DNA of 32,000 nt from Halomicronema hongdechloris C2206. GTDB taxonomy: Bacteria; Cyanobacteriota; Cyanobacteriia; Phormidesmidales; Phormidesmidaceae. The translations under genes were made by a program, and so were the position numbers. How positions within the stretch are numbered: position 1 is the first letter of the stretch; the number at the start of each line of letters is the position of its first letter. The DNA lies in NCBI RefSeq assembly GCF_002075285.3, contig NZ_CP021983.2, forward strand, positions 2,850,001 to 2,882,000. The letters run 5' to 3'. A model generated the notes under the pieces. It ran no database searches. It worked only from the letters and a program-made list of their open reading frames with translations, and was not told where the DNA came from. Positions 7,741 to 27,025 of this stretch are shown piece after piece.

Positions 7741-7774
7741 GGAGCTTTTTTGAACGGTTTCCGGAGTTTTTGTG
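7741..7774 (-). promoter_or_regulatory. Phased direct repeat (candidate AraC-type operator) upstream of receptor 1
   Basis: GGAGCTTTTTTGA (7741-7753) and CGGAGTTTTTGTG (7762-7774) have GGAG cores 22 bp apart. They lie 85-118 bp upstream of the start at 7656. The same arrangement occurs at three other loci. Confidence 0.45.
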
Positions 7775-7853
7775 GTTTAGCCGTCCGTATGATGCATCGA
7801 GTCTGTGTTTTGACGCTAAGGTAAATAAAAGATTGACCGTTTTCTCTCTTCTA

Positions 7854-8084
7854 ATGGATTGGCAAGAGCGCATTGTCGTCAACCCTGACATCCTAGTCGG
7901 TAAGCCCGTTATTCGCGGTACTCGACTAGCTGTCGAATTCATCATCGACTTACTAGCGGAGGGTTGGTCAGAGCCAGAAGTACTCCGAAACTACCCCGGC
8001 ATAACTCGAGAAGATATTCAAGCCTGCCTTCGCTATGCCAGCGAACTTCTCAAAGCTGAGCGGGTTTATCCTTTGTCTGTATAA
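7854..8084 (+). CDS. DUF433 domain protein (antitoxin-like partner of DUF5615)
   Basis: MDWQERIVVNPDILVGKPVIRGTRLAVEFIIDLLAEGWSEPEVLRNYPGITREDIQACLRYA. The ATG is at 7854. The stop lies 2 nt before the next gene. Confidence 0.8.
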   Translation: MDWQERIVVNPDILVGKPVIRGTRLAVEFIIDLLAEGWSEPEVLRNYPGITREDIQACLRYASELLKAERVYPLSV

Positions 8085-8086
8085 CG

Positions 8087-8455
8087 GTGAGGTTCCTGGC
8101 TAACGAAAATTTTCCAGGCGATGCCGTTGAAGCGCTTCGCAAGCAAGGGCACGATGTCCGATGGATTCGTACCGACGCTCCAGGCAGCTCCGATTCTGAA
8201 GTTTTATCAATGGCTCAAGCCGAAGATCGCATTCTTTTGACTTTTGATCGAGACTTTGGTGAGCTAGCGTTTCGTCTCGGACTTCCGGCAACGACTGGCA
8301 TCGTACTCTTTCGCTTTAGGATGACCTCTGCTCAACAGGTTGCAAGCGTGGTGACACAGGCCATATCTCTACGCACCGACTGGATTGGCCATTTCAGCGT
8401 TGTTGAGATAGACCGGGTCCGCATGCGTGCCCTACCAACAGACAAACAGTCTTAG
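8087..8455 (+). CDS. DUF5615 family PIN-like protein (toxin-like)
   Basis: The start is a GTG at 8087. Sequence: MRFLANENFPGDAVEALRKQGHDVRWIRTDAPGSSDSEVLSMAQAEDRILLTFDRDFGELAFR. Confidence 0.8.
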   Translation: MRFLANENFPGDAVEALRKQGHDVRWIRTDAPGSSDSEVLSMAQAEDRILLTFDRDFGELAFRLGLPATTGIVLFRFRMTSAQQVASVVTQAISLRTDWIGHFSVVEIDRVRMRALPTDKQS

Positions 8456-8507
8456 TTTGTTATGGTTAAAACCACCCGAGAGTTGTGATACAGAACCCTG
8501 TGGGAAA

Positions 8508-9536
8508 CTAACTTATCTGCCAAAAATGCCGCTGACGTTTGCGGTAGACGCTGGGATTGATGCCGAATTTCTTGCGAAAGGCCAGGGCAAAGTGGCTGCG
8601 GTTGACGTATCCTACAGCCTGGGCCGCCTCAGTAATCGTCATCTCACCAGCTGTCAATAGCTGACGAGCCCTCTCCATACGGCAATCCTGTAGATAACCA
8701 AAGACGGTGGTGCCAAACACCTGGCGAAATCCAACCTTGAGTTTGCAGTCATTAATGCCTATCAGACGAGCCAGGTCAATTAGCGACGGCGGATCATCGA
8801 GTCGGGCCACCAGTAGCTCTTTGGCGTAGTGAATGCGCTCAATATCGTCGGGTTTCAACCCCTTAGCAGACGGGGTGGAGCCATCCATCTCGGGTAGTTG
8901 AGCCAGCTGTAGTGCCATCAGTTCCCACACCTTACCCTCTAGGTATATGCGCTGGGTCAATCCTTGAAATGGGCACTGCAGTATGTGTTGAACGATCTGC
9001 TGCATGGCTGAGCTGGTGTTGTATATCTGCAAATGATAGAGCCGATCGGGGGGTTTTATTAGGTAGTTTAGAGACTGGGAAAGTTCCTTAGAACAGTCCG
9101 TCGCCCATTGCCCCAACAGTGCTGGCTCGATATGGATGTTGACCGTAAACTTATGGAGATCCGCCACCTCATAGCCTGCTTCCTCAGGAGCCATACCGCT
9201 GCCACAAAAGCAATGCTGCCCAACCTTCACTGGGTATGACTCGGAAGGCGCAGCGCCCATCAACACGTAGTTCAGTTCCAGGGGATGTTCTCGCTCATCG
9301 CTGGTGATAATAAGATCATCATGAAGACGATAGTCTGCGATCGCCAGCACGATTCCGTCTCGAATTCGAATCTTTCGGTAATACCCTGCCCCCAGCTGCT
9401 TGGGATATTTCCAGGTGATGTCATACTCGTCGGTGTTGCGGTTAATATCCTGATGGGGCTGGCTCGCAGCCGCATTCGTTTCCTGGATGTGTCGCACTAA
9501 CTGCCAATAGTCTTGCTGTGAGAGGGTAATCGTCAT
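8508..9536 (-). CDS. AraC family transcriptional regulator (PchR-like), copy 1
   Basis: 342 aa. N-terminal sensing domain (WKYPKQLGAGYYRKIRIRDGIVLAIADYRLHDDL). C-terminal double HTH (LIDLARLIGINDCKLKVGFRQVFGTTVFGYLQDCRMERARQLL...AAQAVGYVNRSHFALAFRKKFGINP). Confidence 0.92.
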   Translation of the reverse strand: MTITLSQQDYWQLVRHIQETNAAASQPHQDINRNTDEYDITWKYPKQLGAGYYRKIRIRDGIVLAIADYRLHDDLIITSDEREHPLELNYVLMGAAPSESYPVKVGQHCFCGSGMAPEEAGYEVADLHKFTVNIHIEPALLGQWATDCSKELSQSLNYLIKPPDRLYHLQIYNTSSAMQQIVQHILQCPFQGLTQRIYLEGKVWELMALQLAQLPEMDGSTPSAKGLKPDDIERIHYAKELLVARLDDPPSLIDLARLIGINDCKLKVGFRQVFGTTVFGYLQDCRMERARQLLTAGEMTITEAAQAVGYVNRSHFALAFRKKFGINPSVYRKRQRHFWQIS

Positions 9537-9576
9537 GGGCTTAACGTTGCCAAGTCATGGTTAAGACCATATCTCA

Positions 9577-9595
9577 AATGAGAGCAATTCTCAAT
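9577..9595. promoter_or_regulatory. 7-5-7 palindrome (Fur-box geometry) upstream of AraC copy 1
   Basis: AATGAGA-gcaat-TCTCAAT is a 19-bp inverted repeat with one arm mismatch. It lies 41-59 bp upstream of the ATG at 9536. Confidence 0.4.
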
Positions 9596-10016
9596 TGATG
9601 GCCAGACGCACCGCGTTGCCGTCTGTACTCACCGCGACTGCCGCGATCCCCTCAGCGGGCTGACTGTGGAAGCGCTCTTCCCCCGCCGGTAGTGATAATA
9701 CGGTGTTGGGAATGGTGACAATTTGGGCGTTACCTAGGGTTTCCAGAGTGGGAGCTGGCAATACGCCATTGGCTTCGATGGTCAGGGTCAGTCCTGCGTC
9801 TGTCGGAGTCAGGCGCAGGTGGGTAATGGTGGCCGGCTCGCTCTCTAGTTGGGCTAGCCAGTCGGCAGCAGTCGGAGCCTTGTCAGGGTCGGTTGTGTCG
9901 GCAGCCACAGGTGCCACGAGGCCACCAGTCATACAGAGGAGGCCAGCAATGCCCAGGACACGGCCCAGGGTCAGGGAATATTTCAGGGAACTCACACCCA
10001 CACGCTGAGTCATCAT
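9591..10016 (-). CDS. Stand-alone AMIN-domain protein with signal peptide, probably the 5' remnant of a TonB-dependent receptor
   Basis: MMTQRVGVSSLKYSLTLGRVLGIAGLLCMTGGLVAPVAA is followed by ITHLRLTPTDAGLTLTIEANG...GNAQIVTIPNTVLSLPAGEERF...AVRLAIN*. This aligns with the first ~190 aa of the three receptors. It stops where the plug domain should begin. Confidence 0.7.
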   Translation of the reverse strand: MMTQRVGVSSLKYSLTLGRVLGIAGLLCMTGGLVAPVAADTTDPDKAPTAADWLAQLESEPATITHLRLTPTDAGLTLTIEANGVLPAPTLETLGNAQIVTIPNTVLSLPAGEERFHSQPAEGIAAVAVSTDGNAVRLAIN

Positions 10017-10113
10017 AAGCTGTTGCAAGTTGTTCTCAGAAGCTAGGGCATAGCATAGGGGATAGGGTGCGATGGTCGCAGACCGGCCTTCGGCCATCGC
10101 AACTTCCCCATCC

Positions 10114-10147
10114 CGGAATTTTTTTATCCCCAGCCGGAATCACTGCC
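10114..10147 (-). promoter_or_regulatory. Phased direct repeat (candidate operator) upstream of the AMIN remnant; distal copy degenerate
   Basis: CGGAATTTTTTTAT (10114-10127) and CGGAATCACTGCC (10135-10147) have GGAA cores 21 bp apart. The second copy keeps only CCGGAAT and overlaps the stop codon (10140-10142) of the AraC relic. Confidence 0.35.
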
Positions 10148-10607
10148 GTAATTGCCGCGGGCTCACCCCAAAGGCTCGCTTAAACGCTGCGGCAAAATGC
10201 CCCACATGGGTATAGCCCACCGCCGTTGCTGCCTCAGTCACACTCATCTCCTGCTCCAACAGCAATTCCCTCGCCTGTTCCAGACGCCGCTGCCGCAGAT
10301 AGCCAAAGACCGTGGTGCCAAAGACCTGCTTAAAGCCCCGCTTCAGAGTGCAGTCATTCAGCCCTACCCAGCGGGCCAGTTGCAGCAGCGACGGAGAATC
10401 GTCCAAATATCGCTCGAGCAGATCGGCAGCAGCGTGAATCTGCTCAATTTGAGCCGGTTTCAGGGATACACCACTGGGCACTATCGGCGCTGCCTGACAA
10501 TACTGATGGGTTTGCAAGGCAATGAGCTCAAGCACCTTACCTTCTAGATAGAGCTGTCGTGTCCAGCCTTCGTAAGGACAATTTAAAATTTGCTGCAACG
10601 CCCACTG
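10140..10607 (-). pseudogene. AraC family regulator, C-terminal half only (HTH domain)
   Basis: The part of ORF 10140-10862 from ...QWALQQILNCPYEGWTRQLYLEGKVLELIALQ... to ...FGTTVFGYLRQRRLEQARELL...HFAAAFKRAFGVSPRQLRQ* aligns with residues ~185-342 of AraC copy 1. No sensing domain is present. Confidence 0.75.
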
Positions 10608-10700
10608 TACTCTGCCATGGTTGAGCACAATGATGCGATCGCACCTCTCCAGCACGGCGCGGCGATGGGAGACAATAAGGAGAGTGACAGAATGAGGTAA
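10608..10700 (-). pseudogene. Relic of an ABC-transporter ATPase C-terminus (H-loop region) fused in frame to the AraC relic
   Basis: In the same ORF, DLPHSVTLLIVSHRRAVLERCDRIIVLNHGRV matches the canonical ...TVLIVSHRL..ADRIIVL..GRV end of ABC nucleotide-binding domains. Further upstream the ORF overlaps the DUF29 gene on the other strand. Confidence 0.55.
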
Positions 10701-10718
10701 ATCAGTACGGTGATTCCC

Positions 10719-11159
10719 ATGCAAACCACCACGCTCTACGCCCAAGATTTTCACGCTTGGACTCAGCACCAGGCAGAGTTGCTGCGCTCTGGCCGTCTTA
10801 GGGAACTGGATATTGAAAATCTGATCGAGGAGATTGAATCGTTGGGCAAGCAACAACGGCAAGAGCTATGCAATCGCCTCGGTGTTTTGCTGGGGCATCT
10901 CCTCAAGTGGCGCTACCAACCAGAAGCCCGATCTAAAAGTTGGGCTGCAACCATCCGCGAGCAACGTCGAGAAATTCATGAAATCTTGGAGGATAATCCC
11001 AGCTTGAAGCCCTACCTGGCAGAAGCAGTCATCAGAGGTTACCGGAAAGGACTGGATTTAGTCAACCGGGAAACGCCTTTAGATCCAGATCAACTCCCTC
11101 AATCTTGCCCCTTCACTGAGGCAGAAATCTTTGAAGCGCCAGTGGACTGGCAGCGGTAA
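10719..11159 (+). CDS. DUF29 domain protein
   Basis: MQTTTLYAQDFHAWTQHQAELLRSGRLRELDIENLIEEIESLGKQQRQELCNRLGVLLGHLLKWRYQPEARSKSWAATIREQRREI. The ATG is at 10719. Confidence 0.85.
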   Translation: MQTTTLYAQDFHAWTQHQAELLRSGRLRELDIENLIEEIESLGKQQRQELCNRLGVLLGHLLKWRYQPEARSKSWAATIREQRREIHEILEDNPSLKPYLAEAVIRGYRKGLDLVNRETPLDPDQLPQSCPFTEAEIFEAPVDWQR

Positions 11160-11329: not shown

Positions 11330-11866
11330 TTACTCAAACACAGGCGGCCACAGCTCAGAGATGGGCAATTCCCAACCCGGTAGCAAGTCTGGAACAGTTA
11401 ATACATCCCCATCGCCCAATGTGATTGACGCTTGCTCTGGGCGTCGAATTTCCACTGTGTGGTCTTCTGGATTCACCAAAAGCCCAACCACTGTGCCTTG
11501 AGTGAGGAACTCATCAATCTTGTCTCGCAGCTCCTCCACCCGATCGGTGGGTGATTTAACTTCTACCATCAAATCAGGAGGAATAGTGGCATAGCCACGA
11601 GGAGAACGGGGAAGCCGCTCAGCCCGGATAAACGAAACATCGGGAGCGCGGGTATTGGCAAGGCTGAACCCGGCACTCGATCCAGTAATCCGTCCGAGCT
11701 GCCGAGGTTTGACCCAGTTCCACAGGTTCGCCCCGACCTGAAAAGCAACCTCATCCGACTCATACCCAGAAGGACTCATGACGATAATCTTGCCATCAAC
11801 CAACTCCAGTCGATAGTCGGGATAGTGGGCTTGCAAGTCCTCTAAGTCTTTGACAGTCAGTGACAT
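11330..11866 (-). CDS. Uma2 family endonuclease
   Basis: MSLTVKDLEDLQAHYPDYRLELVDGKIIVMSPSGYESDEV...APDVSFI...PPDLMVEVKSPTD...EFLTQGTVVGLLVNPEDHTVEIRR. The ATG is at 11864-11866. Confidence 0.85.
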   Translation of the reverse strand: MSLTVKDLEDLQAHYPDYRLELVDGKIIVMSPSGYESDEVAFQVGANLWNWVKPRQLGRITGSSAGFSLANTRAPDVSFIRAERLPRSPRGYATIPPDLMVEVKSPTDRVEELRDKIDEFLTQGTVVGLLVNPEDHTVEIRRPEQASITLGDGDVLTVPDLLPGWELPISELWPPVFE

Positions 11867-11933
11867 AGGGCTTCCAGACAATCCGTGTCTGCCGAATTCA
11901 ATTTCCTGCCATTATTGTGGCACTAGTTCAATA

Positions 11934-12687: not shown

Positions 12688-12690
12688 AGA

Positions 12691-13686
12691 TCAGTCCTCT
12701 ACTAGGTACTTAAACAGGTCATCCAACACCGCGTTGGCTGCCAAGGGGCCATCCCCGATCCAGTAGCTGGGCACTTCATAGACGCGCCCTTGCTGCACCG
12801 CCTGCAGTTGCGACCACAGGGGATCGGTCTGCAGCCTCGCCTTTTGCGAGTGGGCCTGCCGGATCAGCTGATCGTTGCCGCCGTAAGTCCACAGGAAAAT
12901 CACGTCGCCATCGGCATCGAGGAGACGCTCGCGACTGATGGAATACTGGATGGGGTTGCCGGTTAGGGCATTGGCTTCGGCAGCGGTGAGATCTTGGCTG
13001 GGGGGGCGCGACAACCCGGCATCGGCAACGATGGTGCCGCAGAAGGAGTCTTTCAGGTACAGGTTCACCCGATCCGGGTAGACGCGGACAATGGAGACGT
13101 CGAGTTGACTGAGGCGCTCTGCCCCGCCCATGGCCCGCTGGAACTCCTCGATGCGGGCATCATACTCTGCCATTACCTGCTCGGCCTGGTCGCGACGGTC
13201 AAGTGCGATCGCCACCTCCCGAAAAAAGCGCTTCCATTCACCGCTGTAATCAAACGGCACTAGCACCGTTGGGGCAATCTGCGACATCGCCCGATAGTTG
13301 AGGTCAAGGTACTCTCCCCCTAGAATCAGATCCGGCTTCAGGGACAGGATTTTCTCTAGGCTGGGGGCGTTGCCGCCCCCCACATTCGTAATGCCCTCGA
13401 CCTCATCTTTCAAGTAAGCCTTCGGACTGGTGACATCGTCGCTGCCAATGGGCTGCACCCCTAACGCCAAGACGTATTCTAAATTGCCCAGCGCCACCAC
13501 CCGTTGCGGGTCAGAGGGGACACAGGTTTCCCCCTTGGCATGGCTGACAACGTGACACGACGAGGTGGTCTCGTCTGGTCTATCAGGGGGCGTAGCCGAG
13601 TCTGGCGATCGCCCCCCACAGGCGACCACCAGCGCCAACATCCCCGCCAATGCGATCGCCAGCCACCGGCGTCCCTGTCGTCTCAT
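12691..13686 (-). CDS. Iron-siderophore ABC transporter substrate-binding lipoprotein, copy 2
   Basis: The ATG at 13684-13686 gives MRRQGRRWLAIALAGMLALVVACGG (lipobox). The C-terminus is DPLWSQLQAVQQGRVYEVPSYWIGDGPLAANAVLDDLFKYLVED. Confidence 0.9.
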   Translation of the reverse strand: MRRQGRRWLAIALAGMLALVVACGGRSPDSATPPDRPDETTSSCHVVSHAKGETCVPSDPQRVVALGNLEYVLALGVQPIGSDDVTSPKAYLKDEVEGITNVGGGNAPSLEKILSLKPDLILGGEYLDLNYRAMSQIAPTVLVPFDYSGEWKRFFREVAIALDRRDQAEQVMAEYDARIEEFQRAMGGAERLSQLDVSIVRVYPDRVNLYLKDSFCGTIVADAGLSRPPSQDLTAAEANALTGNPIQYSISRERLLDADGDVIFLWTYGGNDQLIRQAHSQKARLQTDPLWSQLQAVQQGRVYEVPSYWIGDGPLAANAVLDDLFKYLVED

Positions 13687-13786
13687 CGGCTCCAATCTCT
13701 CAAGCTGCTAATCCCCGTTCCCCGTTCTCTGTTTTTCCCCGTGGGTCCGTCCCTGGCCCCTCATGACGTCCTCTAAGTCAATTTTC

Positions 13787-13893: not shown

Positions 13894-16392
13894 CTAAAAC
13901 TCCACCGAGAGGGTGCCAATGATCGTCAACGGTGCGCCCGGTTCGATGGCCACCCGGCCAAAGTTATTGGCCGTGAAATAGCGCACATCAAACAAGTTTT
14001 GCACATTGATGGCCGCCCGCCAGTTATCTCGGTTGTAAAACACGGCGGCATCGGTGCGCCAGTAACCGGGCAAGTCGAAGGTGTCACCGAAGTCTCCGGC
14101 CCGTTCACCCACATGGAACACGCCAGCGCCAAACCCAAGTCCCTGCAGGTCGCCCGACTGAATCTCATAGGTGGTCCAGAGGCTGGCCGTGTGTTCAGGG
14201 ACATTGTCTACTCGACTCCCCGGTTCCAACCCAAAGAACTCCTCCGTGAATTCGGCATCGATATAGCCTACCGAGGCAATCACGTTCCAGCCCGGCAAAA
14301 TTTCACCGCTGATATCCAGTTCAACACCGCGACTGCGCTGCTCGGCAGTCGGGACAAAGGCTCCGGTAGCCGCATCAAAGGTAGCTAACCCAGAGCGATT
14401 AATGTGGAAGACAGCCAAATTGGCAATCAGATTTCCCTGCAGCAGTTCAGCCCGCAGGCCCACTTCGTATTGGGTGCCCCGTTCTGGGTCTAAGAAGTTG
14501 CCATCGATATCGGTGCCAAAGTTAGGCTGAAACGAGCGGGAGAAGCTGGCGTAGAGGGCCAAGGGCTCAACCGGGCGATACAGCAAGCCAATGGAAGGGC
14601 TAAAGGCGGTAGGCGACTGGCTGTCGCTGGTGCCAGTCAGGTTGTTCTCGCTGCGTTGCTCGACAAAATCAACCCGACCCGCCAGCAATAGCTGTAAATT
14701 ATCGGTCAGCTCGATCTGGTCTTGGGCAAAAATGCCGATACTGTCAGTGCGGATGAAGTTATCTCGCACCACATTGGTCAGCTCCGCAAAGCTCGGCGGC
14801 GTGACCTGATTGTAGACCGGATTGAAGATATTGATACTCGGGGTGAGGCCTGCTGGCAGTCGGCTCTGGGTACCGCCGTCAGTCACTCGCGAGAGGTCAA
14901 ATCCCAGCAGCACATTGTGTTCTAACGACCCGGTGTTGAAACGGCCATTGACCTCCGTTTGCAACAAATAAGTTTGAGAAAGGTCATCGTTGGAGCGGAA
15001 GTTACGAGTCAGCTCTCCTGTAGCCTCATTCAAGTTAAGCGGTTCAGCCCGAAAGTCCACCGTATCAGAGGAGAGGAATCGAAACGCGTTTCGAATACCC
15101 CACTGATCATTGAATTGGTGTTCGAGACGGTACCCGGCTGAGATTTCTTCCAGCTCGTAGAAATCATCTGGTTCCCCCAAGAATCGGCGTACCGGAATAT
15201 CGGCCACATCACGACCCGAGGCTACCAGGCCCCGATCAAAGGGACGCTCACTATCGAGGTAGCTGAACTCCAGGGTCAGGGTGGTGTCATCGGTAATATC
15301 CCAGGCCAGCACTGGCGAGACAAAAACACGCTCCACATCTTGGTCTAAATCGCGAAAGCCATCGGAGCCTTCATAGGCCAGATTGACGCGATAGCGAAGA
15401 TCTCCGGCGTCTGTCAGGGGACCCGAGAGATCCGCCGTGGGACGGATAAAGCCGAAGCTGCCTGCCCGCAGCTGGGCTTCGTAGCGGGGATTAGCCAGGG
15501 GCTGTTCCGTCACCACATTGATGGCGCCACCCGGTTCTAGATTGCCTTGCAGGACCGAAGCTGGCCCTTTGATCACCTCAATACGCTCGATATTGGACGT
15601 CTCCAGAATGGAAAAGGTGGGATCGCGGAAGCCATCCCGGAAGATATTGCGCAGGAAAAATCCCCGCATAATAAATTGGTCGGCAGTGCCGCCGAAACCG
15701 CCATCTCTGACTACATTGCTGACGTTGCGCAGGGCATCGCCTACCCGATTGGCCGCCTGATCCTCGATCACTTGGCGCGGCACCACCTGAATGGAGCGGG
15801 GGGTGTCGCGCAGGGGCACATCCAGGCGGGTAACGCTGGCTTCGGTGGGCACATAGTCACTGCGCTCGCCCGTCACCAGAATCTGCAGGGCCTCCTCGTC
15901 AGCGGCGGCCGCCGCCGCTACCCCTGGCACCACGCTCAGCACTAAGCCCGTGGCCTCTACGCTGACGTCGGTGGTCGGTGGCGCCTCAATACCGGTGATC
16001 GAGACCTGCACCCGATCGCCGGCCAGATTGGTCAGGGCAACTCGGGCAATGCCATCAATGGGATCGGCCACCTCAAAGCTGTCACCGTCGGGCAGCGCCA
16101 ACACGGCATTGGGAATCTCGGCAGTCAGGGCATTCCCCGCCGTTGTCGTCTCCGGTGCAGTTAGCGTACCAGAGGTCTCCAGCACCAGACGCAATCCCGT
16201 TGCACTGGTGTCTACCTGCACATCCGTAATCTGCACTAGCCCCTGAGCCAAGTCCAGCTGACTCGCCTCGGCGCTGAGCGATCGCGGGCGCTCGCTACGC
16301 CTGTCTTCGGTTTCCGCCGCCCCAGGAGACAGCGGCACAAGTGCTAGCACTCCGGCTAACAGCAGTAATCGTTGCAACTTATCAACCATCAC
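13894..16392 (-). CDS. TonB-dependent siderophore receptor with AMIN-type extension, copy 2
   Basis: 832-aa ORF (GTG at 16392, ATG at 16389). ITDVQVDTSATGLRLVLETSG...GNALTAEIPNAVLALPDGDSF...VQVSITGIEAPP. Plug motif IERIEVIKGPASVLQG. Terminal strand TIIGTLSVEF. Confidence 0.92.
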   Translation of the reverse strand: MMVDKLQRLLLLAGVLALVPLSPGAAETEDRRSERPRSLSAEASQLDLAQGLVQITDVQVDTSATGLRLVLETSGTLTAPETTTAGNALTAEIPNAVLALPDGDSFEVADPIDGIARVALTNLAGDRVQVSITGIEAPPTTDVSVEATGLVLSVVPGVAAAAAADEEALQILVTGERSDYVPTEASVTRLDVPLRDTPRSIQVVPRQVIEDQAANRVGDALRNVSNVVRDGGFGGTADQFIMRGFFLRNIFRDGFRDPTFSILETSNIERIEVIKGPASVLQGNLEPGGAINVVTEQPLANPRYEAQLRAGSFGFIRPTADLSGPLTDAGDLRYRVNLAYEGSDGFRDLDQDVERVFVSPVLAWDITDDTTLTLEFSYLDSERPFDRGLVASGRDVADIPVRRFLGEPDDFYELEEISAGYRLEHQFNDQWGIRNAFRFLSSDTVDFRAEPLNLNEATGELTRNFRSNDDLSQTYLLQTEVNGRFNTGSLEHNVLLGFDLSRVTDGGTQSRLPAGLTPSINIFNPVYNQVTPPSFAELTNVVRDNFIRTDSIGIFAQDQIELTDNLQLLLAGRVDFVEQRSENNLTGTSDSQSPTAFSPSIGLLYRPVEPLALYASFSRSFQPNFGTDIDGNFLDPERGTQYEVGLRAELLQGNLIANLAVFHINRSGLATFDAATGAFVPTAEQRSRGVELDISGEILPGWNVIASVGYIDAEFTEEFFGLEPGSRVDNVPEHTASLWTTYEIQSGDLQGLGFGAGVFHVGERAGDFGDTFDLPGYWRTDAAVFYNRDNWRAAINVQNLFDVRYFTANNFGRVAIEPGAPLTIIGTLSVEF

Positions 16393-16451: not shown

Positions 16452-16470
16452 ATTAAGAACTTGTCTCAAG
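16452..16470. promoter_or_regulatory. Degenerate 7-5-7 palindrome upstream of receptor 2
   Basis: ATTAAGA-acttg-TCTCAAG has the same geometry and half-site as the AraC-upstream palindromes (ATTGAGA-N5-TCTCAAT). It lies 60-78 bp upstream of the start. Confidence 0.3.
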
Positions 16471-16518
16471 AAGATACAGGATGACGGGGACAGGGCAATA
16501 CCGCTGGCGATCCGGTGG

Positions 16519-16552
16519 CGGAGTTTTTGCGATCGCATCCCGGAGTTTTTGC
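16519..16552 (-). promoter_or_regulatory. Phased direct repeat (candidate AraC-type operator) upstream of receptor 2
   Basis: CGGAGTTTTTGC occurs at 16519-16530 and again, identically, at 16541-16552, exactly 22 bp apart. Confidence 0.5.
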
Positions 16553-19886: not shown

Positions 19887-19889
19887 TTT

Positions 19890-19920
19890 GTAGGGTGCGT
19901 TGCTGAACAGCAAACGCACC
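19890..19920 (+). repeat. REP-like hairpin with 5' GTAG, left of the RAYT gene
   Basis: GTAG-GGTGCGTTGC-tgaaca-GCAAACGCACC forms a 10-bp stem with a 1-nt bulge. Confidence 0.65.
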
Positions 19921-19965
19921 ATTTTGTGGGGCATCCTAACATTAATCCTTGACCTGCCTTCTCTC

Positions 19966-20514
19966 ATGCCCGACTATCGAAGACCTGAAATTGCAGGTGG
20001 CACCTACTTCATCACCCAAGTCACCTATCAACGCCAGCCCTGGCTGTGTCGTGAAATTGGTCGTCATGCGCTACGGACAGCTATCAATCAGGTTAGAGGC
20101 ACTCGTCCTTTTGCGATTGATGCCTTTGTGCTGTTACCCGATCATTTCCACTGTCTTTGGACTTTACCTCAAAACGACAGCGATTTATCCACTCGTCTGC
20201 GTCTGATCAAAACTTATGTCACGAGGCATTATGGAACTCAGTTAGGACTTGATATAGACGTTTCAGATTCTCGCAGGAAGCGGAAGGAGCGCAATCTGTG
20301 GCAGCGTCGATTTTGGGAACATTTGATTCGAGACGACACGGATTTTGCTCAATATTGTGATTATATTCATTACAATCCAGTGCATCATCAGTTGTGCCAA
20401 GTGCCAACAGAATGGCAATTTTCAAGTGTGCATCGATTGATTATTGAAGGGATTTATCCGCCCAATTGGGGTGACTACCCAGTTGAGTTTGGGCTGGAGG
20501 GGCGATGGCAGTGA
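19966..20514 (+). CDS. REP-associated tyrosine transposase (RAYT, IS200/IS605-like Y1 HUH enzyme)
   Basis: MPDYRRPEIAGGTYFITQVTYQRQPWL...FVLLPDHFHCLW has its HUH motif at 20143-20151. Also present are RRFWEHLIRDDTDF and YIHYNPVHHQL (catalytic Tyr region). The ATG is at 19966. Confidence 0.85.
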   Translation: MPDYRRPEIAGGTYFITQVTYQRQPWLCREIGRHALRTAINQVRGTRPFAIDAFVLLPDHFHCLWTLPQNDSDLSTRLRLIKTYVTRHYGTQLGLDIDVSDSRRKRKERNLWQRRFWEHLIRDDTDFAQYCDYIHYNPVHHQLCQVPTEWQFSSVHRLIIEGIYPPNWGDYPVEFGLEGRWQ

Positions 20515-20515
20515 T

Positions 20516-20545
20516 GGTGCGTTTGCTTGTCGCAACGCACCCTAC
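20516..20545 (-). repeat. REP-like hairpin with GTAG, inverted copy to the right of the RAYT gene
   Basis: The plus strand reads GGTGCGTTTGC-ttgtc-GCAACGCACC-CTAC. Its reverse complement, GTAGGGTGCGTTGC...GCAAACGCACC, has arms identical to the left copy. Confidence 0.65.
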
Positions 20546-20571
20546 AAGATCCGCGATCGCACTAAATTAAA

Positions 20572-21623
20572 CCTTATCGGAAATTGAGCCGATAGAATCA
20601 ATATCAGGAGCATCGACCAGGGATATGCCATGAAAGTGACCTATGCCGAGTTGCGGAGCAAACCTCGCACCCTCTGCAGTTTGACTGGACTGAGAGGGTC
20701 CGAGTTTGAGGCACTGTTGCCGAGCTTCGGCGATGCCTGGGATGACTTTGTGCGAGAGACCTTTGAGCGCGCAGGGCGTAAACGAGCCGTGGGAGCGGGT
20801 CGTAAAGCGCACCTGAAGACGCTGGAAGATAAATTGCTGTTCATCCTGATGTACTTTCGCCTCTATCCCACTCAGGCGGTGCAAGGCTTTCTCTTTGGCA
20901 TGAGCCAGGCGCAAGCGAATCAATGGATTCACCGCCTCACGGGGGTGTTAAACCAGGCCCTCGGCTACCAGCAGCAACTGCCGGAGCGAGAACCGGCGAA
21001 GCTGGAGAGCATCCTCCAACCCTGTCCGAGTTTAGAGTTCATGATCGATGGCAGCGAACGTCGCATCAATCGCCCCAAAGATCAGACCGACCGCAAGACA
21101 TATTACAGCGGTAAGCGGCAGGCTCATAGCGTCAAGAACGTGGTGGTTCACGATCGTAAGGGCAAGGTGCACTATCTGAGTGACACCTATGAAGGCAAGA
21201 AGCACGACAAGGCGATCGCGGACGAGAAGGACTTACGATTCCCGGAGGGCAGTACGTTATGGCAGGATAGGGGGTTTCAAGGCTTTGCCCCAGCGGGGGT
21301 GACGATTCAGCCACCGAAGAAGAAACCCCGCAAGCGCTCTCTCAGTACGATTGAGAAGATGAATAACCAAAAACATTGCCAGCATTCGTGTGGAAGTCAA
21401 ACACCACATTGGAGGTATCAAACGGTGTCAAATTTTGGTGCAGCCGTTTCGCAATTGGGTCGACCATTACATCGATGACGTGATGGAAACGGCCTGCGGG
21501 TTACACAATTTCCGCTTGACTTATCGGAAAATGCAAAGTGACGCTTTAAGCCAAGCTGCTTAGTTTCCAAAGAATTGGGAGAGATGCTGACTCACAACAA
21601 TCTCTCCCCTATTTCCGATAAAG
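20572..21623 (+). mobile_element. IS5-family (DDE_Tnp_4 / HARBI1-like transposase) insertion sequence; ends approximate
   Basis: The short terminal inverted repeat TTATCGGAAAT (20574-20584) pairs with ATTTCCGATAA (21611-21621). A subterminal hairpin GGGAGAGAT...ATCTCTCCC lies at 21577-21608. I could not identify a target duplication confidently. Confidence 0.6.
20630..21563 (+). pseudogene. IS5-family transposase with a +1 frameshift
   Basis: ORF 20630-21478 reads normally to ...KKKPRKRSLSTIEKMNNQK and then becomes nonsense. The +1 frame from about 21375 reads IASIRVEVKHHIGGIKRCQILVQPFRNWVDHYIDDVMETACGLHNFRLTYR...*, the expected C-terminus (stop at 21561-21563). The break lies at the A5 run near 21369-21375. 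Confidence 0.8.
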
Positions 21624-22082: not shown

Positions 22083-23090
22083 TTACACAACTTTATTCAA
22101 ACGACTGACTCGATACTGCTTCACCTCCCACAGTGGTTTATCCTTGCCTGAACTCCACATCGTTTTGACGGTGCCGCTAACCTCCACACGGGCTTCGTAA
22201 GTGCCCGATACCCTGCCTTCATGAGAATTGAAGTCAATACGAACCTCGGCCCAGTCGGGGTAATACTCGTCTGACTCATCCATAGCCAACACCTGACTCA
22301 CTTTGGCATAATGGAACCAGTTCCATCCCTCCTGCATCCACATTTCTCGCTCAGCAATTTGCTCGACCTGACTCAATCCAGCCCAACCCTGATAATAGTC
22401 ATAGAGGTCGGCAACTGGTCCACGGCGATACACCAACAGGTCTAATACCTCTAGCTCTAAGTGGCCCCAGTAACGTCCTTCTGGGAAGTCGACCAGAGTG
22501 GGAGCGAAGTTGTGGGGACCGAGATGAGTGCACCGCCAGACTCGCAATTTGCCTCCAGAATTCGCCGCGTGTTCAGAGCGGAGCTGGCGATATAGAGGAT
22601 AACCAAATCGTCCACAGGCAACATCGTAGCTCCCATGGGTACACAACATCATCTCCCGAATGTCTTCTGTTTCTTGGCGACTGCTCTCAAACTGAGGCAA
22701 TAAATCGGGTTGCTGGAGTAACGCCAGGACAACCGTAACTACTTGCTCGTCTGGAACGACAAACTCTTGTTTCTCAAACTGAACAAAGCCTTCTTCGGAA
22801 GGTCGCCGATAGTATAGTATGCGGGTATAGTTAGGCTGAGAGTATTGACAATCAGGTGCAATCGCCATTGCCCTCAAGCTGAGACCTTGCTCCTTCTTGA
22901 GCTGAGTGGCCAGATCGGCAATCGGTTGAAATTGGGGCTGAGCCTGCCAGAACTCTATGGGCCAGGGTTCTGGGACTTCAATAAATAGGAAGGCGTCGTA
23001 GTTTCCAGCAGATCCAATTGGATCTTCGCCGTTCGCTTTAGAAACTTCACAGCAGTAACAGAAATTAGTTAGAATCTCAGCTTTGGTCAT
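22083..23090 (-). CDS. Sucrase/ferredoxin-like (thioredoxin-like [2Fe-2S], Apd1/Aim32-type) protein
   Basis: 335 aa. CTHGSYDVAC is a C-X8-C motif (Cys codons at 22641-22643 and 22614-22616). CTHLGPHNFAPT is an H-X3-H motif (His codons at 22524-22526 and 22512-22514). An AGGAG Shine-Dalgarno lies upstream. The gene is co-directional with, and 93 bp downstream of, binding protein 3. Confidence 0.8.
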   Translation of the reverse strand: MTKAEILTNFCYCCEVSKANGEDPIGSAGNYDAFLFIEVPEPWPIEFWQAQPQFQPIADLATQLKKEQGLSLRAMAIAPDCQYSQPNYTRILYYRRPSEEGFVQFEKQEFVVPDEQVVTVVLALLQQPDLLPQFESSRQETEDIREMMLCTHGSYDVACGRFGYPLYRQLRSEHAANSGGKLRVWRCTHLGPHNFAPTLVDFPEGRYWGHLELEVLDLLVYRRGPVADLYDYYQGWAGLSQVEQIAEREMWMQEGWNWFHYAKVSQVLAMDESDEYYPDWAEVRIDFNSHEGRVSGTYEARVEVSGTVKTMWSSGKDKPLWEVKQYRVSRLNKVV

Positions 23091-23183
23091 AACTCCTTTT
23101 GAGTGATTAGTGATTGTTCATTAGATTGACTGTTAGTCAAGTGACTATGGGTAAAAAACAACAAACAACATTACATCCTTGAT

Positions 23184-24206
23184 CTATTCCTTTTCCCCAA
23201 CCAGGTACTTAAACAAGTCGTCGACAACAGCATTGGCAGCCAGTGGACCATCCCCAATCCAATAGCCTGGAACCTCGTAAACCTTACCTTGTTTCACCAC
23301 CGCTAGTTGCGACCAGAGCGGATCTGCTTTCAGCCTCTTCAAAGCACTGTTTGCTTGCTGAGCTTGCTCAGCATTATAGCCATAGGTCCACACAAACATG
23401 GCATCCCCATCTAGATCGTGGATTCGTTCCTTGCTGATGTCCTGTTGACCTCCCATCTGATTCTGGTATGCCGGACGAGATACCCCAGCATCTGCCAAGA
23501 TAGTTCCACAAAATGAGTCTTTGAGATAGACTACGATCTGATTTGGATAAATACGGACTATTGAAACCTCAAGCTGATTCAGGCGCTCGCCCATCTGATC
23601 TTTAAACGCTTCGAGTCGAGCATAGTAGTCAGTTATCATCTGCTTTGCCACGTCTATCCTATCCAGTGTCTCCGCATACTGCATAAGCCTTTCTTTCCAT
23701 TTATCACTATGTTCAAATGGGAAAATAACTGTTGGGGCAATTTTCGATAAAGTGTCATAATTTTCCTTAAGCCCATCTCGGTAGCTCAAGATAAAATCGG
23801 GCTTGAGTTGCAGAATCTTTTCTAGATTCGGGATATTCACACTACCAACATTTTCAATCCCCTTAGTTTTGTCCTTTAAATGGGGAAAATCAGCCTCTAA
23901 CTCGTCGCTACCGACTGGTTTTATACCCAAAGACAAGACGTAATCTAATCCTCCTAGAACAACGACTCGTTGTAGATTATTGGGAACGCACGTTTCCCCC
24001 ATCGCATGTTTAACAATATGGCAGTCCGATACTGGTAATGAGGGTTGATGGGAAGAAGAGTTTTGGGAAAACGTTCCACTGCAAGCTGAGATGAGAAGAA
24101 ACATAGCTATTGCTGACAAAACATGTCGCAGCCTTCCAGGAACATTACAACCATTTCCTGAAAGTATTTTTCTCAAATTGCCAATACTTGGTGTCTGATC
24201 AATCAT
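23184..24206 (-). CDS. Iron-siderophore ABC transporter substrate-binding lipoprotein, copy 3
   Basis: AIAMFLLISACSG (lipobox). The C-terminus is DPLWSQLAVVKQGKVYEVPGYWIGDGPLAANAVVDDLFKYLVGEKE. Confidence 0.9.
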   Translation of the reverse strand: MIDQTPSIGNLRKILSGNGCNVPGRLRHVLSAIAMFLLISACSGTFSQNSSSHQPSLPVSDCHIVKHAMGETCVPNNLQRVVVLGGLDYVLSLGIKPVGSDELEADFPHLKDKTKGIENVGSVNIPNLEKILQLKPDFILSYRDGLKENYDTLSKIAPTVIFPFEHSDKWKERLMQYAETLDRIDVAKQMITDYYARLEAFKDQMGERLNQLEVSIVRIYPNQIVVYLKDSFCGTILADAGVSRPAYQNQMGGQQDISKERIHDLDGDAMFVWTYGYNAEQAQQANSALKRLKADPLWSQLAVVKQGKVYEVPGYWIGDGPLAANAVVDDLFKYLVGEKE

Positions 24207-24262
24207 TCGTTAGTCCATCAACTTTTCATTTGCTCTTCACTTTACTTGGAACTAACGTCGGA

Positions 24263-26890
24263 TTAAAACCTGACTGAAACAGAACCAGTAACCGACAAAG
24301 GCTCTCCTTGAGGCAGGCGCGCTCTATCTGAAGCAGATACAATAAATCTCTCGTCAAAGAGATTATCAATCGTTAATCTAAATGTCCAATTTTCTACTTG
24401 GTAAGCTGCCCCCAAATCAACTCGTACAAAACTAGGTACTGTGAAACTATTGGCAGTATCTCCAGCTCGTTCGCCAACATACACTAAACCTGCCCCTAAA
24501 CTTAAGCCATTTAAGGCACCTTGAGTAAACTCATACTCGCCGTAAAGTCCGAGACTGTTTCGAGGGCTATTGAGGAAACGGTTACCTTCTAGATCTGGTT
24601 CACCGTCGATAATTTCTGCTTCAAATAGGTTAGTGTAGGCTAGGATTACCCTAAAGTTATCGGTGATTTGACCAGCAATGTCTAATTCTACCCCTCGGCT
24701 ACGCACATCTCCAACTGGAATGACGAAGTTGGGATCAATTGGATCAGTCTCTGCAATATTGGTTTGAGTCAAGTCAAACAGGGCTGTGGTGAGACTTAGT
24801 CGATTATCGAATAGATTAACCTTGCCACCAATCTCGAATTGCGTAGCTCGCCTAGGCTCAATAAATTCACCGTCTATAGTTTCACCAAACTGAGGTTCGG
24901 TTGATTGGCTGAAACTGCCATAAATAGAAGCCGAATCACTCAACATGTAGAGTAAACCAACACTAGGTGCGACAAAATCGTCGTCTTGAAAGACCTCGTC
25001 ACTAATGCCATCTTTATTTTCAAACTGGCCATAACGCAGCCCAGCCAATAAACGGAAACGCCCCAATGTTATGAAGTCCTGAATATAGATGCCCCAATCG
25101 TTACTAATGTTATTAATTGGTATAGGGTCACCTAAAGGCGGTAGCGGGAAGTCAAAGGTGGGATTAGCAACGTCAATGATTGGGAAGTCAGACCCAAGCC
25201 TAAGTGGGAAGTCAGTCTCTGATCTGTTATACTCAGCGCCTGCTAGTAACTGGTGTTCAGAAGCTCCAATTTCAAAATCCCCTCTAATTTCACCACGTAA
25301 ATTAGCCTGATTAAAATCATCTAAAATCTGACCCACAAACAGCGGCAGTTCATTGTTGGCGTTAACATTGATAGTTATTGCAGAAGGATCTAATTCTCGG
25401 CGAGTGTCGAAATATTGCCCACTTAGGGCAATTGACCATTGTTCACTAATAGGTTGATCAAAGTAGGCAGCAACTCGAAAGTGGCGATTAATATCGCTAT
25501 TACGAGGGTCAGTGAAACTGCGATCAAAGAAGAATTCTCCATCAAAGAATTTAGCACCAGTTGTACCATCTTTTTCTAGCCGAAAATATTCAGCTTCGAG
25601 GGTGAGAGATCCTCCTCCTCCGGTTAACCAGGTCAATGCAGGAGCAACAAAAATTCGATCATCTTCAATATTGGGGACGAAAGAGTTAGACTCTTGGAAT
25701 GCGAGATTGAGCCGATACAGTAGATTCTGATTTTGAGTTAGTGGTCCTGTCAAGTCCACTTCTCCACGATAGAAATCAAAGCTCCCAGCTTCAAAACTAA
25801 TATCGTAACTAGGGGTATCTTCAGGCCTCTCAGTGATGTAATTGACGACACCACCAGGTGTTCCTGGACCGAAGAGTAGAGAAGAAAATCCCTTCAGAAT
25901 TTCAATGCGTTCAATATTAGCTAGATCTCTGACCAAGAAGCGAGGGTTATCCCGTAAACCATTCACGAAGGTTTGTCGTTGGACATCAAATCCACGAATT
26001 GTAAATTGAGGAGTGTTTCCCGAAGCACCTTCCTGCCCTCCTTGAATCACACCGCTAATATAGGGGGCTAATTCTTCCCCTCGTCTGGCGGCTCGATCTT
26101 GAATTAGCTCTTCAGTAATGACCCCAATGGAGGCTGGCGTTTCTAGTAGGGGAATGTTTAGTCTAGTGCCTGTAGTAGCATTGGACGTACGGTAGCCCTC
26201 TTGCTCCCCCGTCACCACAATCTCGATCGCATCATCAGCATCATCGACCTGGGCGATGCCTGGCACGACAGTCCAGACCAAATTACCGGCTTCGGCACTC
26301 ACGGTCGCTTCCGGTGGCGCATCGGTGCCCATAATCGCTACTTGAATGCGATCCTGGCCCACAGCCGTCACTGACACCCGGGCAATGCCTGCAGCTGGGT
26401 CGGTTGCCTGAAACTCGTCTCCCTCTGGCAGGGCCAGCACCGCATTGGGAATCTCTGCCACGAGGGCATTGCCTACGGTTTCTGTGGTCGGAACAGACAA
26501 ATCTCCGTCAGCGGTCTCCAATATTACTTGCAAACCAGTCTCGCTGCTTTCAACCCGCACGCCGGTAATTTCGATGATCGCCGCTTCAATTTGAGCGACC
26601 CACTCGGTAACAGTGGTGGCGGGGGGTGGGGTAGAGGGGTGTTGGCGGAGCCTGCCCGAAGGGCTTAGGGGTGATGGGGTGGTGGGGTGATGGGGTGATG
26701 GGGTGGTGGGTATTTGAGAGGTGCCCCTCTCGTTGGTATTTGACTCGCCCACTTGCCCACTTGCCCGCTCGCCTAGGTCATTTCCTGTGGCGGGTTGTGC
26801 CCAACCGAGGGCCACTAGCGTCGTCAGGCTCAGGGTGCTGGCTAGGGCATAGGAACACTGGACTAGGCCTGTTATGGAATGCGATCGCAT
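24263..26890 (-). CDS. TonB-dependent siderophore receptor with AMIN-type extension, copy 3 (divergent barrel, Pro-rich insert)
   Basis: 875 aa. ITGVRVESSETGLQVILETADG...GNALVAEIPNAVLALPEGDEF...IQVAIMGTDAPPE. Plug motif IERIEILKGFSSLLFG. Terminal strand SVTGSVSVRF. The low-complexity block PTTPSPHHPTTPSPLSPSGRLRQHPSTPPP is encoded by the G-rich repeat at 26637-26710. Confidence 0.92.
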   Translation of the reverse strand: MRSHSITGLVQCSYALASTLSLTTLVALGWAQPATGNDLGERASGQVGESNTNERGTSQIPTTPSPHHPTTPSPLSPSGRLRQHPSTPPPATTVTEWVAQIEAAIIEITGVRVESSETGLQVILETADGDLSVPTTETVGNALVAEIPNAVLALPEGDEFQATDPAAGIARVSVTAVGQDRIQVAIMGTDAPPEATVSAEAGNLVWTVVPGIAQVDDADDAIEIVVTGEQEGYRTSNATTGTRLNIPLLETPASIGVITEELIQDRAARRGEELAPYISGVIQGGQEGASGNTPQFTIRGFDVQRQTFVNGLRDNPRFLVRDLANIERIEILKGFSSLLFGPGTPGGVVNYITERPEDTPSYDISFEAGSFDFYRGEVDLTGPLTQNQNLLYRLNLAFQESNSFVPNIEDDRIFVAPALTWLTGGGGSLTLEAEYFRLEKDGTTGAKFFDGEFFFDRSFTDPRNSDINRHFRVAAYFDQPISEQWSIALSGQYFDTRRELDPSAITINVNANNELPLFVGQILDDFNQANLRGEIRGDFEIGASEHQLLAGAEYNRSETDFPLRLGSDFPIIDVANPTFDFPLPPLGDPIPINNISNDWGIYIQDFITLGRFRLLAGLRYGQFENKDGISDEVFQDDDFVAPSVGLLYMLSDSASIYGSFSQSTEPQFGETIDGEFIEPRRATQFEIGGKVNLFDNRLSLTTALFDLTQTNIAETDPIDPNFVIPVGDVRSRGVELDIAGQITDNFRVILAYTNLFEAEIIDGEPDLEGNRFLNSPRNSLGLYGEYEFTQGALNGLSLGAGLVYVGERAGDTANSFTVPSFVRVDLGAAYQVENWTFRLTIDNLFDERFIVSASDRARLPQGEPLSVTGSVSVRF

Positions 26891-26921
26891 AATTCAACCT
26901 CCTCACACCGTTGGCAAATCA

Positions 26922-26940
26922 AATGCAAATAACTTGCATT
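26922..26940. promoter_or_regulatory. Perfect 7-5-7 palindrome between the putative -10 and the start of receptor 3
   Basis: AATGCAA-ataac-TTGCATT lies 32-50 bp upstream of the ATG (26890). On the coding strand it sits just downstream of a TATTAT -10 candidate (plus-strand 26953-26958). The GAGGAGG Shine-Dalgarno is at 26898-26904. Confidence 0.45.
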
Positions 26941-26989
26941 AATGTGGGGACAATAATATCGACATTCAGCCGTTGCTGCGAATCCCAGA

Positions 26990-27025
26990 CGGAATTTTTG
27001 TGAATCCAGGCGGGAGTTTTTGGTG
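26990..27025 (-). promoter_or_regulatory. Phased direct repeat (candidate AraC-type operator) upstream of receptor 3
   Basis: CGGAATTTTTGTG (26990-27002) and GGGAGTTTTTGGTG (27012-27025) have GGA cores 22 bp apart. They lie 100-135 bp upstream of the start. Confidence 0.5.

Follow-up and report, generated by a model that had tools for sequence, protein, structure and literature searches.

Tandem direct repeats of 21-22 bp upstream of cyanobacterial siderophore-receptor genes: probable operators of AraC-type iron-uptake regulators

The region analysed here is a stretch of 32,000 nucleotides (the window) from Halomicronema hongdechloris C2206, contig NZ_CP021983.2, positions 2,850,001 to 2,882,000 of the forward strand. 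It contains an iron-uptake island, with every relevant gene encoded on the minus strand, and in this island a pair of direct repeats precedes three TonB-dependent siderophore receptor genes (receptors 1 to 3), a truncated receptor remnant and an ATP-binding cassette (ABC) transporter gene. The motif pair is very probably the DNA site of AraC-type iron-uptake regulators, which would activate the neighbouring siderophore receptor and transporter genes. On the sequence evidence we consider it highly likely that the pair is the tandem operator of PchR/IutR-type AraC activators, with repression by Fur acting over the -10 element. The analysis yields a nucleotide-level operator model, namely a tandem of bipartite 21-22 bp units that keeps a set distance to the -10, with a Fur-like box over the latter. 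The model spans Nodosilinea-/Leptolyngbya-like genomes to Dolichospermum and Picosynechococcus PCC 7002.

The initial annotation of the window described eight copies of an 11-base motif, placed 21-22 bp apart in pairs and all in the same orientation to the minus-strand genes. All eight copies were confirmed at their coordinates, and the core on the gene (minus) strand is CAAAAAYTCCG. Measured at GGA(G/A), the cores are 22 bp apart at 7741/7763, 16519/16541 and 26990/27012, and 21 bp apart at 10114/10135. With at most one mismatch, CGGARTTTTTG has 9 matches in the window against 1.14 expected, a number reached in 0 of 100 shuffles. A position weight matrix (PWM) of the 21-nt unit was built from non-window sites only and used to scan for tandem pairs in the window; it returned exactly five tandem sites in 32 kb and nothing else, all on the minus strand (Table 1). 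In the null, taken from 100 first-order Markov simulations, pairs scoring 14 bits or more arose at 0.02 per 32 kb and the highest score was 22.1 bits; the four sites before receptors 1-3 and the ABC gene are far beyond chance. The claim that the motif lies upstream of the receptor-type genes holds for receptors 1-3 and weakly for the remnant, while the fifth pair, before the ABC gene, had been missed. The proximal core lies 85, 127 and 100 bp from the start codon of receptors 1, 2 and 3, respectively. Counterparts were found among the loci outside the window (L numbers): near-identical orthologous sites for receptor 2 in L030/L177, L032, L058, L062, L079, L097, L099 and L105, the identical CTCC..CGTTC variant of receptor 1 in L138 and L122, and orthologous sites before orthologous ABC genes in L153, L166 and L151.

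The 11-mer, initially taken as the repeat unit, turned out to be only part of it. According to the consensus from an alignment of about 50 non-redundant sites, conservation extends over the full 21-22 bp period. The unit consists of (C)AAAAAYTCCG, a yyTAG-like spacer of about 6 bases and a second element, sGWTC, with two units placed head to tail. In the information profile the highest conservation falls on TCC(G) and on the TC of sGWTC, beyond the A-tract alone, and about 11 bp separate the centres of A5YTCC(G) and sGWTC, in the 21-bp class as in the 22-bp class. The two elements are thereby predicted to lie in successive major grooves on one DNA face, and the combination of the 21-22 bp period with two sub-elements about 11 bp apart appears to fit one double helix-turn-helix (HTH) domain of AraC type per unit. 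A perfect unit, AAAAAATTCCGTCTAGCGTTC, is present twice in L178, and the receptor 2 type reads CAAAAACTCCGGnnnGCGATCG followed by CAAAAACTCCGyCyAGGGATCA.

The HIP1 octamer GCGATCGC (16526-16533), a cyanobacterial signature that occurs 27 times in the window, forms the second read-out element of the distal unit in the receptor 2-type operator; in the proximal unit this element is GGATC. The same placement of the octamer is found in L030, L050, L058, L062, L079 and L105. Both GATC and CGATCG are methylated in many cyanobacteria, and methylation could have an effect on binding at operators of this type.

Conservation beyond the window was examined starting from the motif and, separately, from the protein. 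The motif-first test was an exact-pattern scan of one genome per species in 185,579 species genomes. Among the matches listed, at least 10 are cyanobacterial with a 22-bp period (Nodosilinea, Leptolyngbya, Shackletoniella, Kaiparowitsia, Dolichospermum and metagenome-assembled genomes), and 9 of 10 cyanobacterial pairs lie 96-190 bp upstream of a receptor homologue in the orientation of the gene. The tenth, L030, ends soon after the pair; in the extended contig, L177, the receptor is found 121 bp downstream. An AraC homologue adjoins the pair in 6 of the 10 loci. The cyanobacterial matches L011, L023, L051 and L063, also among those listed, have no receptor or AraC nearby. About 106 of the at least 120 listed matches are non-cyanobacterial, lack a receptor homologue and were treated as unrelated. 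Most of these have an 11- or 13-base gap, a weak AraC match was present in L012 only, and examples include a conserved string, CAAAAACTCCTGCAATnGCnCCAAAAACTCC, in Flavobacterium and other tandem arrays.

The protein-first test used 79 metagenome loci (926 kb) chosen only for an AraC homologue, most of which contain the same araC-receptor-binding-protein cassette as the window. Among same-strand close core pairs with at most one mismatch, 24 of 32 are spaced 21-22 bp; with at most two mismatches there are 27, 53 and 33 pairs at 20, 21 and 22 bp, respectively, against about 5 elsewhere. A pair lies within 300 bp upstream of 47 of the 79 receptor genes, 3 of 14 ABC genes and 1 of 73 binding-protein genes, and upstream of none of the 98 AraC genes and none of the 25 other genes. 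The orientation of the pair always matches the downstream gene. The possibility of a generic dispersed repeat, raised together with the initial annotation, is thus countered as far as the data allow, the pair being concentrated upstream of receptor genes in the motif-first and the protein-first test alike. ABC transporter promoters with the pair occur in the window and in three other loci, and the regulon of the tandem site is wider than the receptors, with an ABC transporter gene included. Absence from the araC promoters (0 of 98) rules out autoregulation through this site.

Three cassettes of the araC-receptor-binding-protein type lie on plasmid pAQ7 of Picosynechococcus PCC 7002. In cassette 1 the pair is canonical, and cassette 3 keeps the geometry in a variant tandem (GTCCG..TCAAAGAGGT) that lacks an A-tract. 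Cassette 2 (L200, 28180-28415) shows no clear tandem at the usual distance, though it has a good -10/Fur block, TATCTTTATTGAGAATATTTTG; either its operator is a very divergent variant or the cassette is under different control.

Regarding the proteins, all four AraC paralogues of the window carry the C-terminal AraC double HTH (HTH_18 and HTH_AraC in Pfam). The AlphaFold2 model of AraC1 has a mean predicted local distance difference test (pLDDT) score of 87 and an N-terminal beta-sandwich of the cupin-like type, with residues 39-136 rich in beta structure. Foldseek matched the full-length model to ToxT, Rns and CsvR at E 6e-10 and weaker, and its DNA-binding domain to AraC-family domains with target-normalised template modelling (TM) scores of 0.69-0.87 (AdpA-DNA 0.87, SoxS 0.80, MarA-DNA 0.74). 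No Pfam or NCBIfam family covers the N-terminal domain of the AraC proteins, and none of them reached an NCBIfam equivalog cutoff. The operator is also tied to these genes by position: in 31 of the 39 loci with araC upstream the distal core starts within 140 bp of the araC stop, and in 15 loci it starts 16 bp before the stop. In about 15 loci (L126, L127, L128, L129, L131, L132, L144, L146, L154, L158, L164 and others) the core AAAAATTCCGCCTAG codes for the AraC C-terminal K-N-S-A-stop, and these bases at the araC 3' ends would double as codons and predicted operator.

Variation in the operator follows variation in the protein. MarA contacts bases through W42, Q45, R46, Q92 and R96. The HTH regions were aligned to MarA; in this alignment the cyanobacterial AraCs vary at the positions that correspond to W42, H43 and R46 (HTH1) and to Q92 and T93 (HTH2). 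Proteins with HTH1 "C..R" pair with TTCC in 16 of 17 cases. Those with "H" number nine, and all seven of their correctly detected operators have CTCC, and CTCC is also seen with "C..V" and "N..V" proteins; ATCC is the usual partner of "F/Y..Q/I/L", and GTCC that of "R..Q". On the side of HTH2, "RG" pairs with GATC in 12 of 14. Both exceptions, L161 and L163, which are also the two excluded "H" cases, are mis-detected sites, and the real operators have GATC. "RS" pairs with GTTC in 10 of 18 and with GATC never. All four module combinations were found, and both rules are obeyed in each: V+G with CTCC..GATC, R+S with TTCC..GTTC, Q+G with TTCC..GATC, and V+S with CTCC..GTTC, the last being AraC1 with receptor 1 in the window. 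Such residue-base covariation seems hard to explain by common descent alone.

Applied to the window, these correspondences predict that AraC1 acts on receptor 1, the AraC remnant on the remnant site and AraC3 on receptor 3. AraC4 is the predicted partner of the receptor 2 operator, from which it is separated by 15 kb and an insertion sequence (IS) block, and regulators of the AraC4 type are found directly upstream of operators of the receptor 2 type in L032, L097, L157, L160, L166 and L105. A more general statement is possible and we make it tentatively: a modular recognition code in which the equivalent of MarA R46 (V, R or Q) would set C, T, or A or G before TCC, and the equivalent of Q92 (G or S) would set GATC or GTTC. 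A recognition code of this kind is not known to have been described for the family. If the code were true, one cyanobacterium could run several mutually insulated siderophore-specific switches from near-identical promoters, and it would become possible to predict regulator-target pairs for any cyanobacterial genome and to design orthogonal inducible promoters.

Downstream of the operator the promoters share a layout. Across 45 promoters, a TAnnnT -10 candidate lies at +43/+44 after the proximal core in 30, with a minor class at +33 in 7, and TTGANA peaks at +50..+53. If TAnnnT is the -10, the operator would span about -87 to -44 in the main class, and in the minor class it would be nearer by one helical turn. 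The class II activator geometry first suggested for receptor 3 is plausible at that promoter only, where the -35-like TTCGCA overlaps the proximal unit; in 30 of the 45 promoters the -10 candidate would place the operator edge near -44. Directly after the -10 candidate stands a palindrome of ATTGAGAAT/ATTCTCAAT type, within a family block that reads TAtcTT-ATTGAGAAtaATTCyTAATT. This block resembles the published Fur sites of PCC 7002, ATTGAGAATAATTAGTAAT and ATTGAAATAAATTCTTATT (PMC5062996, Table 2). It also contains ATTGAGAAT, the reverse complement of the core ATTCTCAAT of the Anabaena FurA consensus AAATAAATTCTCAATAAAT (PMC4005646). Position, palindromy and the resemblance to the PCC 7002 sites together suggest that the block is a Fur site. 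At the remnant promoter the -10/Fur-like block, TAGCTTCTGAGAACAACTTG, is found at about +70 (match start +71) and not at +44, a displacement of about 26 nt.

These features combine into a switch of the following kind. One AraC DNA-binding domain would occupy each unit, its N-terminal HTH reading the A-tract/YTCC element and its C-terminal HTH reading sGWTC; a dimer would therefore occupy both units on one DNA face and would recruit or activate RNA polymerase. The Fur-box-like palindrome after the -10 would confer iron repression, with Fur occluding the -10 and the start when iron is replete, so that transcription would require both low iron and the activator. A cognate (xeno)siderophore on the cupin-like N-terminal domain is probably needed as well, as in PchR, FoxR and Btr. 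With its own operator variant for each AraC paralogue, the island would contain parallel, partly insulated switches for different receptors. We infer the dimer occupancy, the polymerase activation, the Fur occlusion and the siderophore requirement by analogy with related systems.

Several observations weigh against this interpretation. At the threshold used, 32 of the 79 receptor promoters have no pair; many of those that fail the strict core keep a 21-bp tandem with TCCG, and in 15 of the 32 the best self-repeat is at 21-22 bp. The remnant site (21.2 bits) is non-significant by its own score, falling within the null maximum. The covariation appears partly confounded by phylogeny, the variants being clades. 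The -10, -35 and Fur assignments are positional, and when the family block is compared with the Anabaena FurA 19-mer the mismatch count is only marginally above that of shuffled sequence. Finally, the window AraCs are linked only by family resemblance to IutR, the only experimentally tested cyanobacterial regulators of this kind.

A different DNA-binding protein, such as an OmpR/PhoB-type response regulator or another iron regulator, might sit on the tandem repeat while the AraC proteins act elsewhere, and winged-helix response regulators also use direct repeats. The Pho box has a TTAA core and a period of 11 bp, both absent here, and a PhoB Pho box was ruled out on its core. PhoB does directly regulate iron-related genes in Synechocystis, via three tandem repeats (PMC11126600), which lends this explanation some weight. 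Against it, a 21-22 bp unit whose two elements are spaced by about 11 bp suits a double-HTH domain, the operator abuts the araC stop in most loci, and its variants change together with HTH residues of AraC across all four module combinations; we regard a protein of another family as improbable. Control by a FecI-type extracytoplasmic function (ECF) sigma factor was ruled out, since the receptors carry AMIN and no signalling N-terminal domain and the gene-strand motif is unlike an ECF -35.

The repeats could also act without a sequence-specific activator or without any present function. A5-6 tracts every 21-22 bp, that is every two helical turns, would bend DNA in phase upstream of the core promoter, and might form a structural element working through curvature or through an UP-element-like contact with the alpha subunit. 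However, conservation is highest at TCC(G) and at the TC of sGWTC and not in the A-tract alone, cassette 3 of PCC 7002 keeps GTCCG..AGAGGT and the geometry without an A-tract, and covariation with a protein is unexpected for a purely structural element. A structural role of this kind is therefore quite unlikely, and within the AraC model the A-tract may still contribute to bending. Alternatively, the pairs could be a relic of duplicated araC-receptor cassettes, kept by the common ancestry of paralogous upstream regions. Cassettes that have been duplicated and rearranged do make up the island, together with IS elements and remnants of genes, and the remnant site is decaying. Yet flanks and spacers have fully diverged, while cores, spacing and -10 distance are kept across receptors that are about 35-60% identical and across several genera, and the pair also stands before a non-homologous ABC transporter gene in four loci; descent without function is the least probable of the three. 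Even taken together, these three explanations have a small share of the probability. The AraC/PchR-type tandem operator proposed in the initial annotation is supported by every computational test that was run, including the conserved position and orientation of the pair in many cyanobacterial genera, its adjacency to araC 3' ends, the fit to a double HTH and the residue-base covariation.

Table 1. Coordinates of the tandem sites, promoter elements and genes in the window
Feature	Position	Strand	Score or remark
Tandem operator, receptor 3 (CAAAAACTCCCGCCTGGATTCA / CAAAAATTCCGTCTGGGATTC), 22-bp period	26980..27022	-	PWM 47.1 bits
Tandem operator, ABC transporter gene (ATAAAACTCCGCTGAGCGGTC / GAAAAAATCCGTCTAGGGCTC), 21-bp period	1562..1603	-	PWM 44.9 bits
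Tandem operator, receptor 2 (CAAAAACTCCGGGATGCGATCG / CAAAAACTCCGCCACCGGATC), 22-bp period	16509..16551	-	PWM 40.1 bits
Tandem operator, receptor 1 (CAAAAACTCCGGAAACCGTTC / AAAAAAGCTCCTGCTGCCGTTC), 22-bp period	7730..7772	-	PWM 32.8 bits
Degenerate tandem site, truncated receptor remnant, 21-bp spacing	10104..10145	-	PWM 21.2 bits
Candidate -10 TATCTT, receptor 2, 44 nt after proximal core	16471..16476	-	+43/+44 peak; cCTGTATCTTGTTGAGAAG block kept in orthologues
Fur-box-like palindrome CTTGAGACAAGTTCTTAAT, receptor 2, directly after -10	16452..16470	-	15/19 positions match family block ATTGAGAATAATTCTTAAT
Candidate -10 TAAGCT, receptor 1, 44 nt after proximal core	7692..7697	-	Positional peak
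Weak Fur-like block, receptor 1	7672-7691	-	
Candidate -10 TATTAT, receptor 3, +33 class	26953..26958	-	Minor TANNNT peak
-35-like TTCGCA, receptor 3, overlapping proximal unit	26977-26982	-	
Palindrome AATGCAAGTTATTTGCATT downstream of receptor 3 -10	26922..26940	-	Second Fur-like flavour (TTGCAAnTnATTTGCAA), also in L153, L148, L169
Receptor 1, TonB-dependent siderophore receptor with N-terminal AMIN	5068..7656	-	Pfam; TIGR01783 443.7 bits, cutoff 223.5
FhuD-like binding protein gene, after receptor 1	3882-4943	-	
Receptor 2, TonB-dependent siderophore receptor with N-terminal AMIN	13894..16392	-	Pfam; above TIGR01783 cutoff
FhuD-like binding protein gene, after receptor 2	12691-13695	-	
Receptor 3, TonB-dependent siderophore receptor with N-terminal AMIN	24263..26890	-	Pfam; above TIGR01783 cutoff
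FhuD-like binding protein gene, after receptor 3	23184-24206	-	
Suc_Fer-like gene, also after receptor 3	22083-23090	-	
Fused permease-ATPase ABC transporter gene, 5' part, running past window start	1..1410	-	Fifth target
AraC1 (HTH1 INDCKLKV, HTH2 NRSHF)	8508..9536	-	Pfam; predicted cognate: receptor 1 operator (CTCC..CGTTC)
AraC remnant (HTH1 LNDCTLKR)	10140..10862	-	Pfam; TTCC 21-bp site downstream
AraC3 (HTH1 LNECALKR, HTH2 SRSSF)	28236..29195	-	Pfam; predicted cognate: receptor 3 operator
AraC4, cut by window end (HTH1 INDHKLKV, HTH2 NRGHF)	31503..32000	-	Predicted cognate: receptor 2 operator (CTCC..GATC)
Receptor 5' remnant (AMIN remnant), signal peptide and AMIN domain, ending just before AraC1	9591-10097	-	

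The remaining features of the island concern the surroundings of these sites. The closest protein relatives of the window are in Leptolyngbya-/Nodosilinea-like organisms, and no siderophore biosynthesis genes were seen in the window. The AraC remnant joins the 3' end of an ABC transporter ATPase gene to the C-terminal half of an AraC within a single gene: its first 95 residues or so include the ATPase C-terminal end TLLIVSHRRAVLERCDRIIVLNHGRV, like the C-termini of the ABC proteins of L153 and L166, and the AraC second half starts from ALQQILNCPYEG. Its product would be a DNA-binding domain without a sensor domain. The distal unit of the remnant site overlaps the stop codon of this gene. For the AMIN remnant that follows, the likely true start is ATGATGACTCAG near 10017-10022 rather than the ATG at 10097, and its promoter, if still active, would now drive AraC1. 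Between AraC1 and the receptor 1 operator there are two small plus-strand open reading frames (ORFs) of 104 and 122 aa at 7770-8455, the first resembling antitoxin-like DUF433 by eye; the araC-operator gap at receptor 1, unusually long at 735 bp, may be due to their insertion.

A block of transposase-like ORFs on the plus strand (18713-21478), including one at 19900-20514 that resembles a REP (repetitive extragenic palindromic)-associated tyrosine transposase, separates the receptor 2 and receptor 3 cassettes, which is consistent with rearrangement of the island and with the distance between AraC4 and the receptor 2 operator. Several paralogous ORFs, judged by eye to resemble Uma2-type restriction-endonuclease-like proteins, lie between the cassettes at 1639-2238 (+), 11330-11881 (-), 27394-27975 (-) and 29452-30273 (-). 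Immediately upstream of the receptor 3 operator there is a short tandem repeat of GGACGGAGAGCGGC, about 2.5 copies at approximately 27033-27068. The leader of the ABC gene, from operator to start codon (1405-1545, minus strand), contains a long hairpin of GTTTTGAG repeats (-42.9 kcal/mol, z -4.3), and similar GTTTTGAG runs occur at the equivalent place in L153 and L166.

The kind of system described here is well known, and binding of cyanobacterial regulators to receptor promoters was published in 2024 (PMC11221513); in 2021 the role of the PchR-like regulators of cyanobacteria had been called poorly understood (PMC8634477). A nucleotide-level description of the operator, the promoter layout or the residue-base correspondence was not found in the literature searched, which did not cover the IutR1 motif logos from chromatin immunoprecipitation sequencing (ChIP-seq). 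Searches of full-text literature for the motif strings CAAAAACTCC and GGAGTTTTTG returned, among the matches listed, only unrelated oligonucleotides such as primers. The model makes testable the assignment of paralogues to receptors, the combination of iron and siderophore signals at one promoter and the cross-talk between regulators, and it is a practical means to annotate siderophore-uptake regulons in cyanobacterial genomes and metagenomes.

Characterised systems of the AraC family offer several comparisons. In AraC at araI1-I2, and in MarA, SoxS and Rob at the marbox, one double-HTH domain reads two adjacent major-groove elements over about 20 bp; two such half-sites, arranged as a direct repeat of 21-bp period, are bound by AraC, whereas for MarA and SoxS a monomer acts at one box. 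The window operator shares the two-element unit and, at 21-22 bp, the direct repeat, and the structures 1bl0 and 7w5w matched the AraC1 model, while the recognition sequences are different. The PchR box contains direct repeats as well, a likeness to the window operator in architecture only. PchR of Pseudomonas aeruginosa (Michel et al. 2005, as cited in PMC8634477 and PMC3333878), named in PMC8634477 as the paradigm for Pseudomonas, is an AraC-type activator of a siderophore receptor gene, with a siderophore as effector and Fur repression on top. PchR also controls biosynthesis genes, of which the window shows none.

Three further systems are close precedents. In Synechocystis sp. PCC 6803, IutR1-3 (Sll1205, Sll1408 and Slr1489, formerly "PchR") bind receptor promoters (PMC11221513). 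They are cyanobacterial AraC-family proteins encoded directly upstream of receptor and binding-protein genes, and they activate under iron deficiency. The probes, of the electrophoretic mobility shift assay (EMSA) type, were whole promoter fragments, the site was not mapped to nucleotides, and three ChIP-seq motifs were given as a figure only (PMC11221513). A global regulon was claimed for IutR, whereas the tandem site described here is confined to receptor and ABC transporter promoters. At foxA of Salmonella enterica, FoxR recognises a pair of direct repeats ahead of the receptor promoter, both of which it requires for binding, and the -10 of that promoter is overlapped by a Fur box (PMC9804782). 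FoxR is an AraC-like regulator that adjoins a xenosiderophore receptor gene, a layout like that of the island, and it is not autoregulated, in agreement with the 98 araC genes that lack the pair. The two systems belong to different phyla and are likened by architecture only; in addition, the Salmonella regulator gene has its own Fur-controlled promoter, whereas here the operator often overlaps the last araC codons. In Bacillus subtilis, Btr binds two direct repeats next to the -35 at feuA (PMC3333878). It is a dimeric siderophore sensor of the AraC family for which the promoter-proximal repeat is critical for activation, and it differs in its substrate-binding-protein-like sensor domain, its 9-bp repeats and its Gram-positive host. 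The mechanism proposed for the window is the expected one for the AraC family, and the tandem operator would be a cyanobacterial representative, conserved across many genera, of a familiar type of switch.

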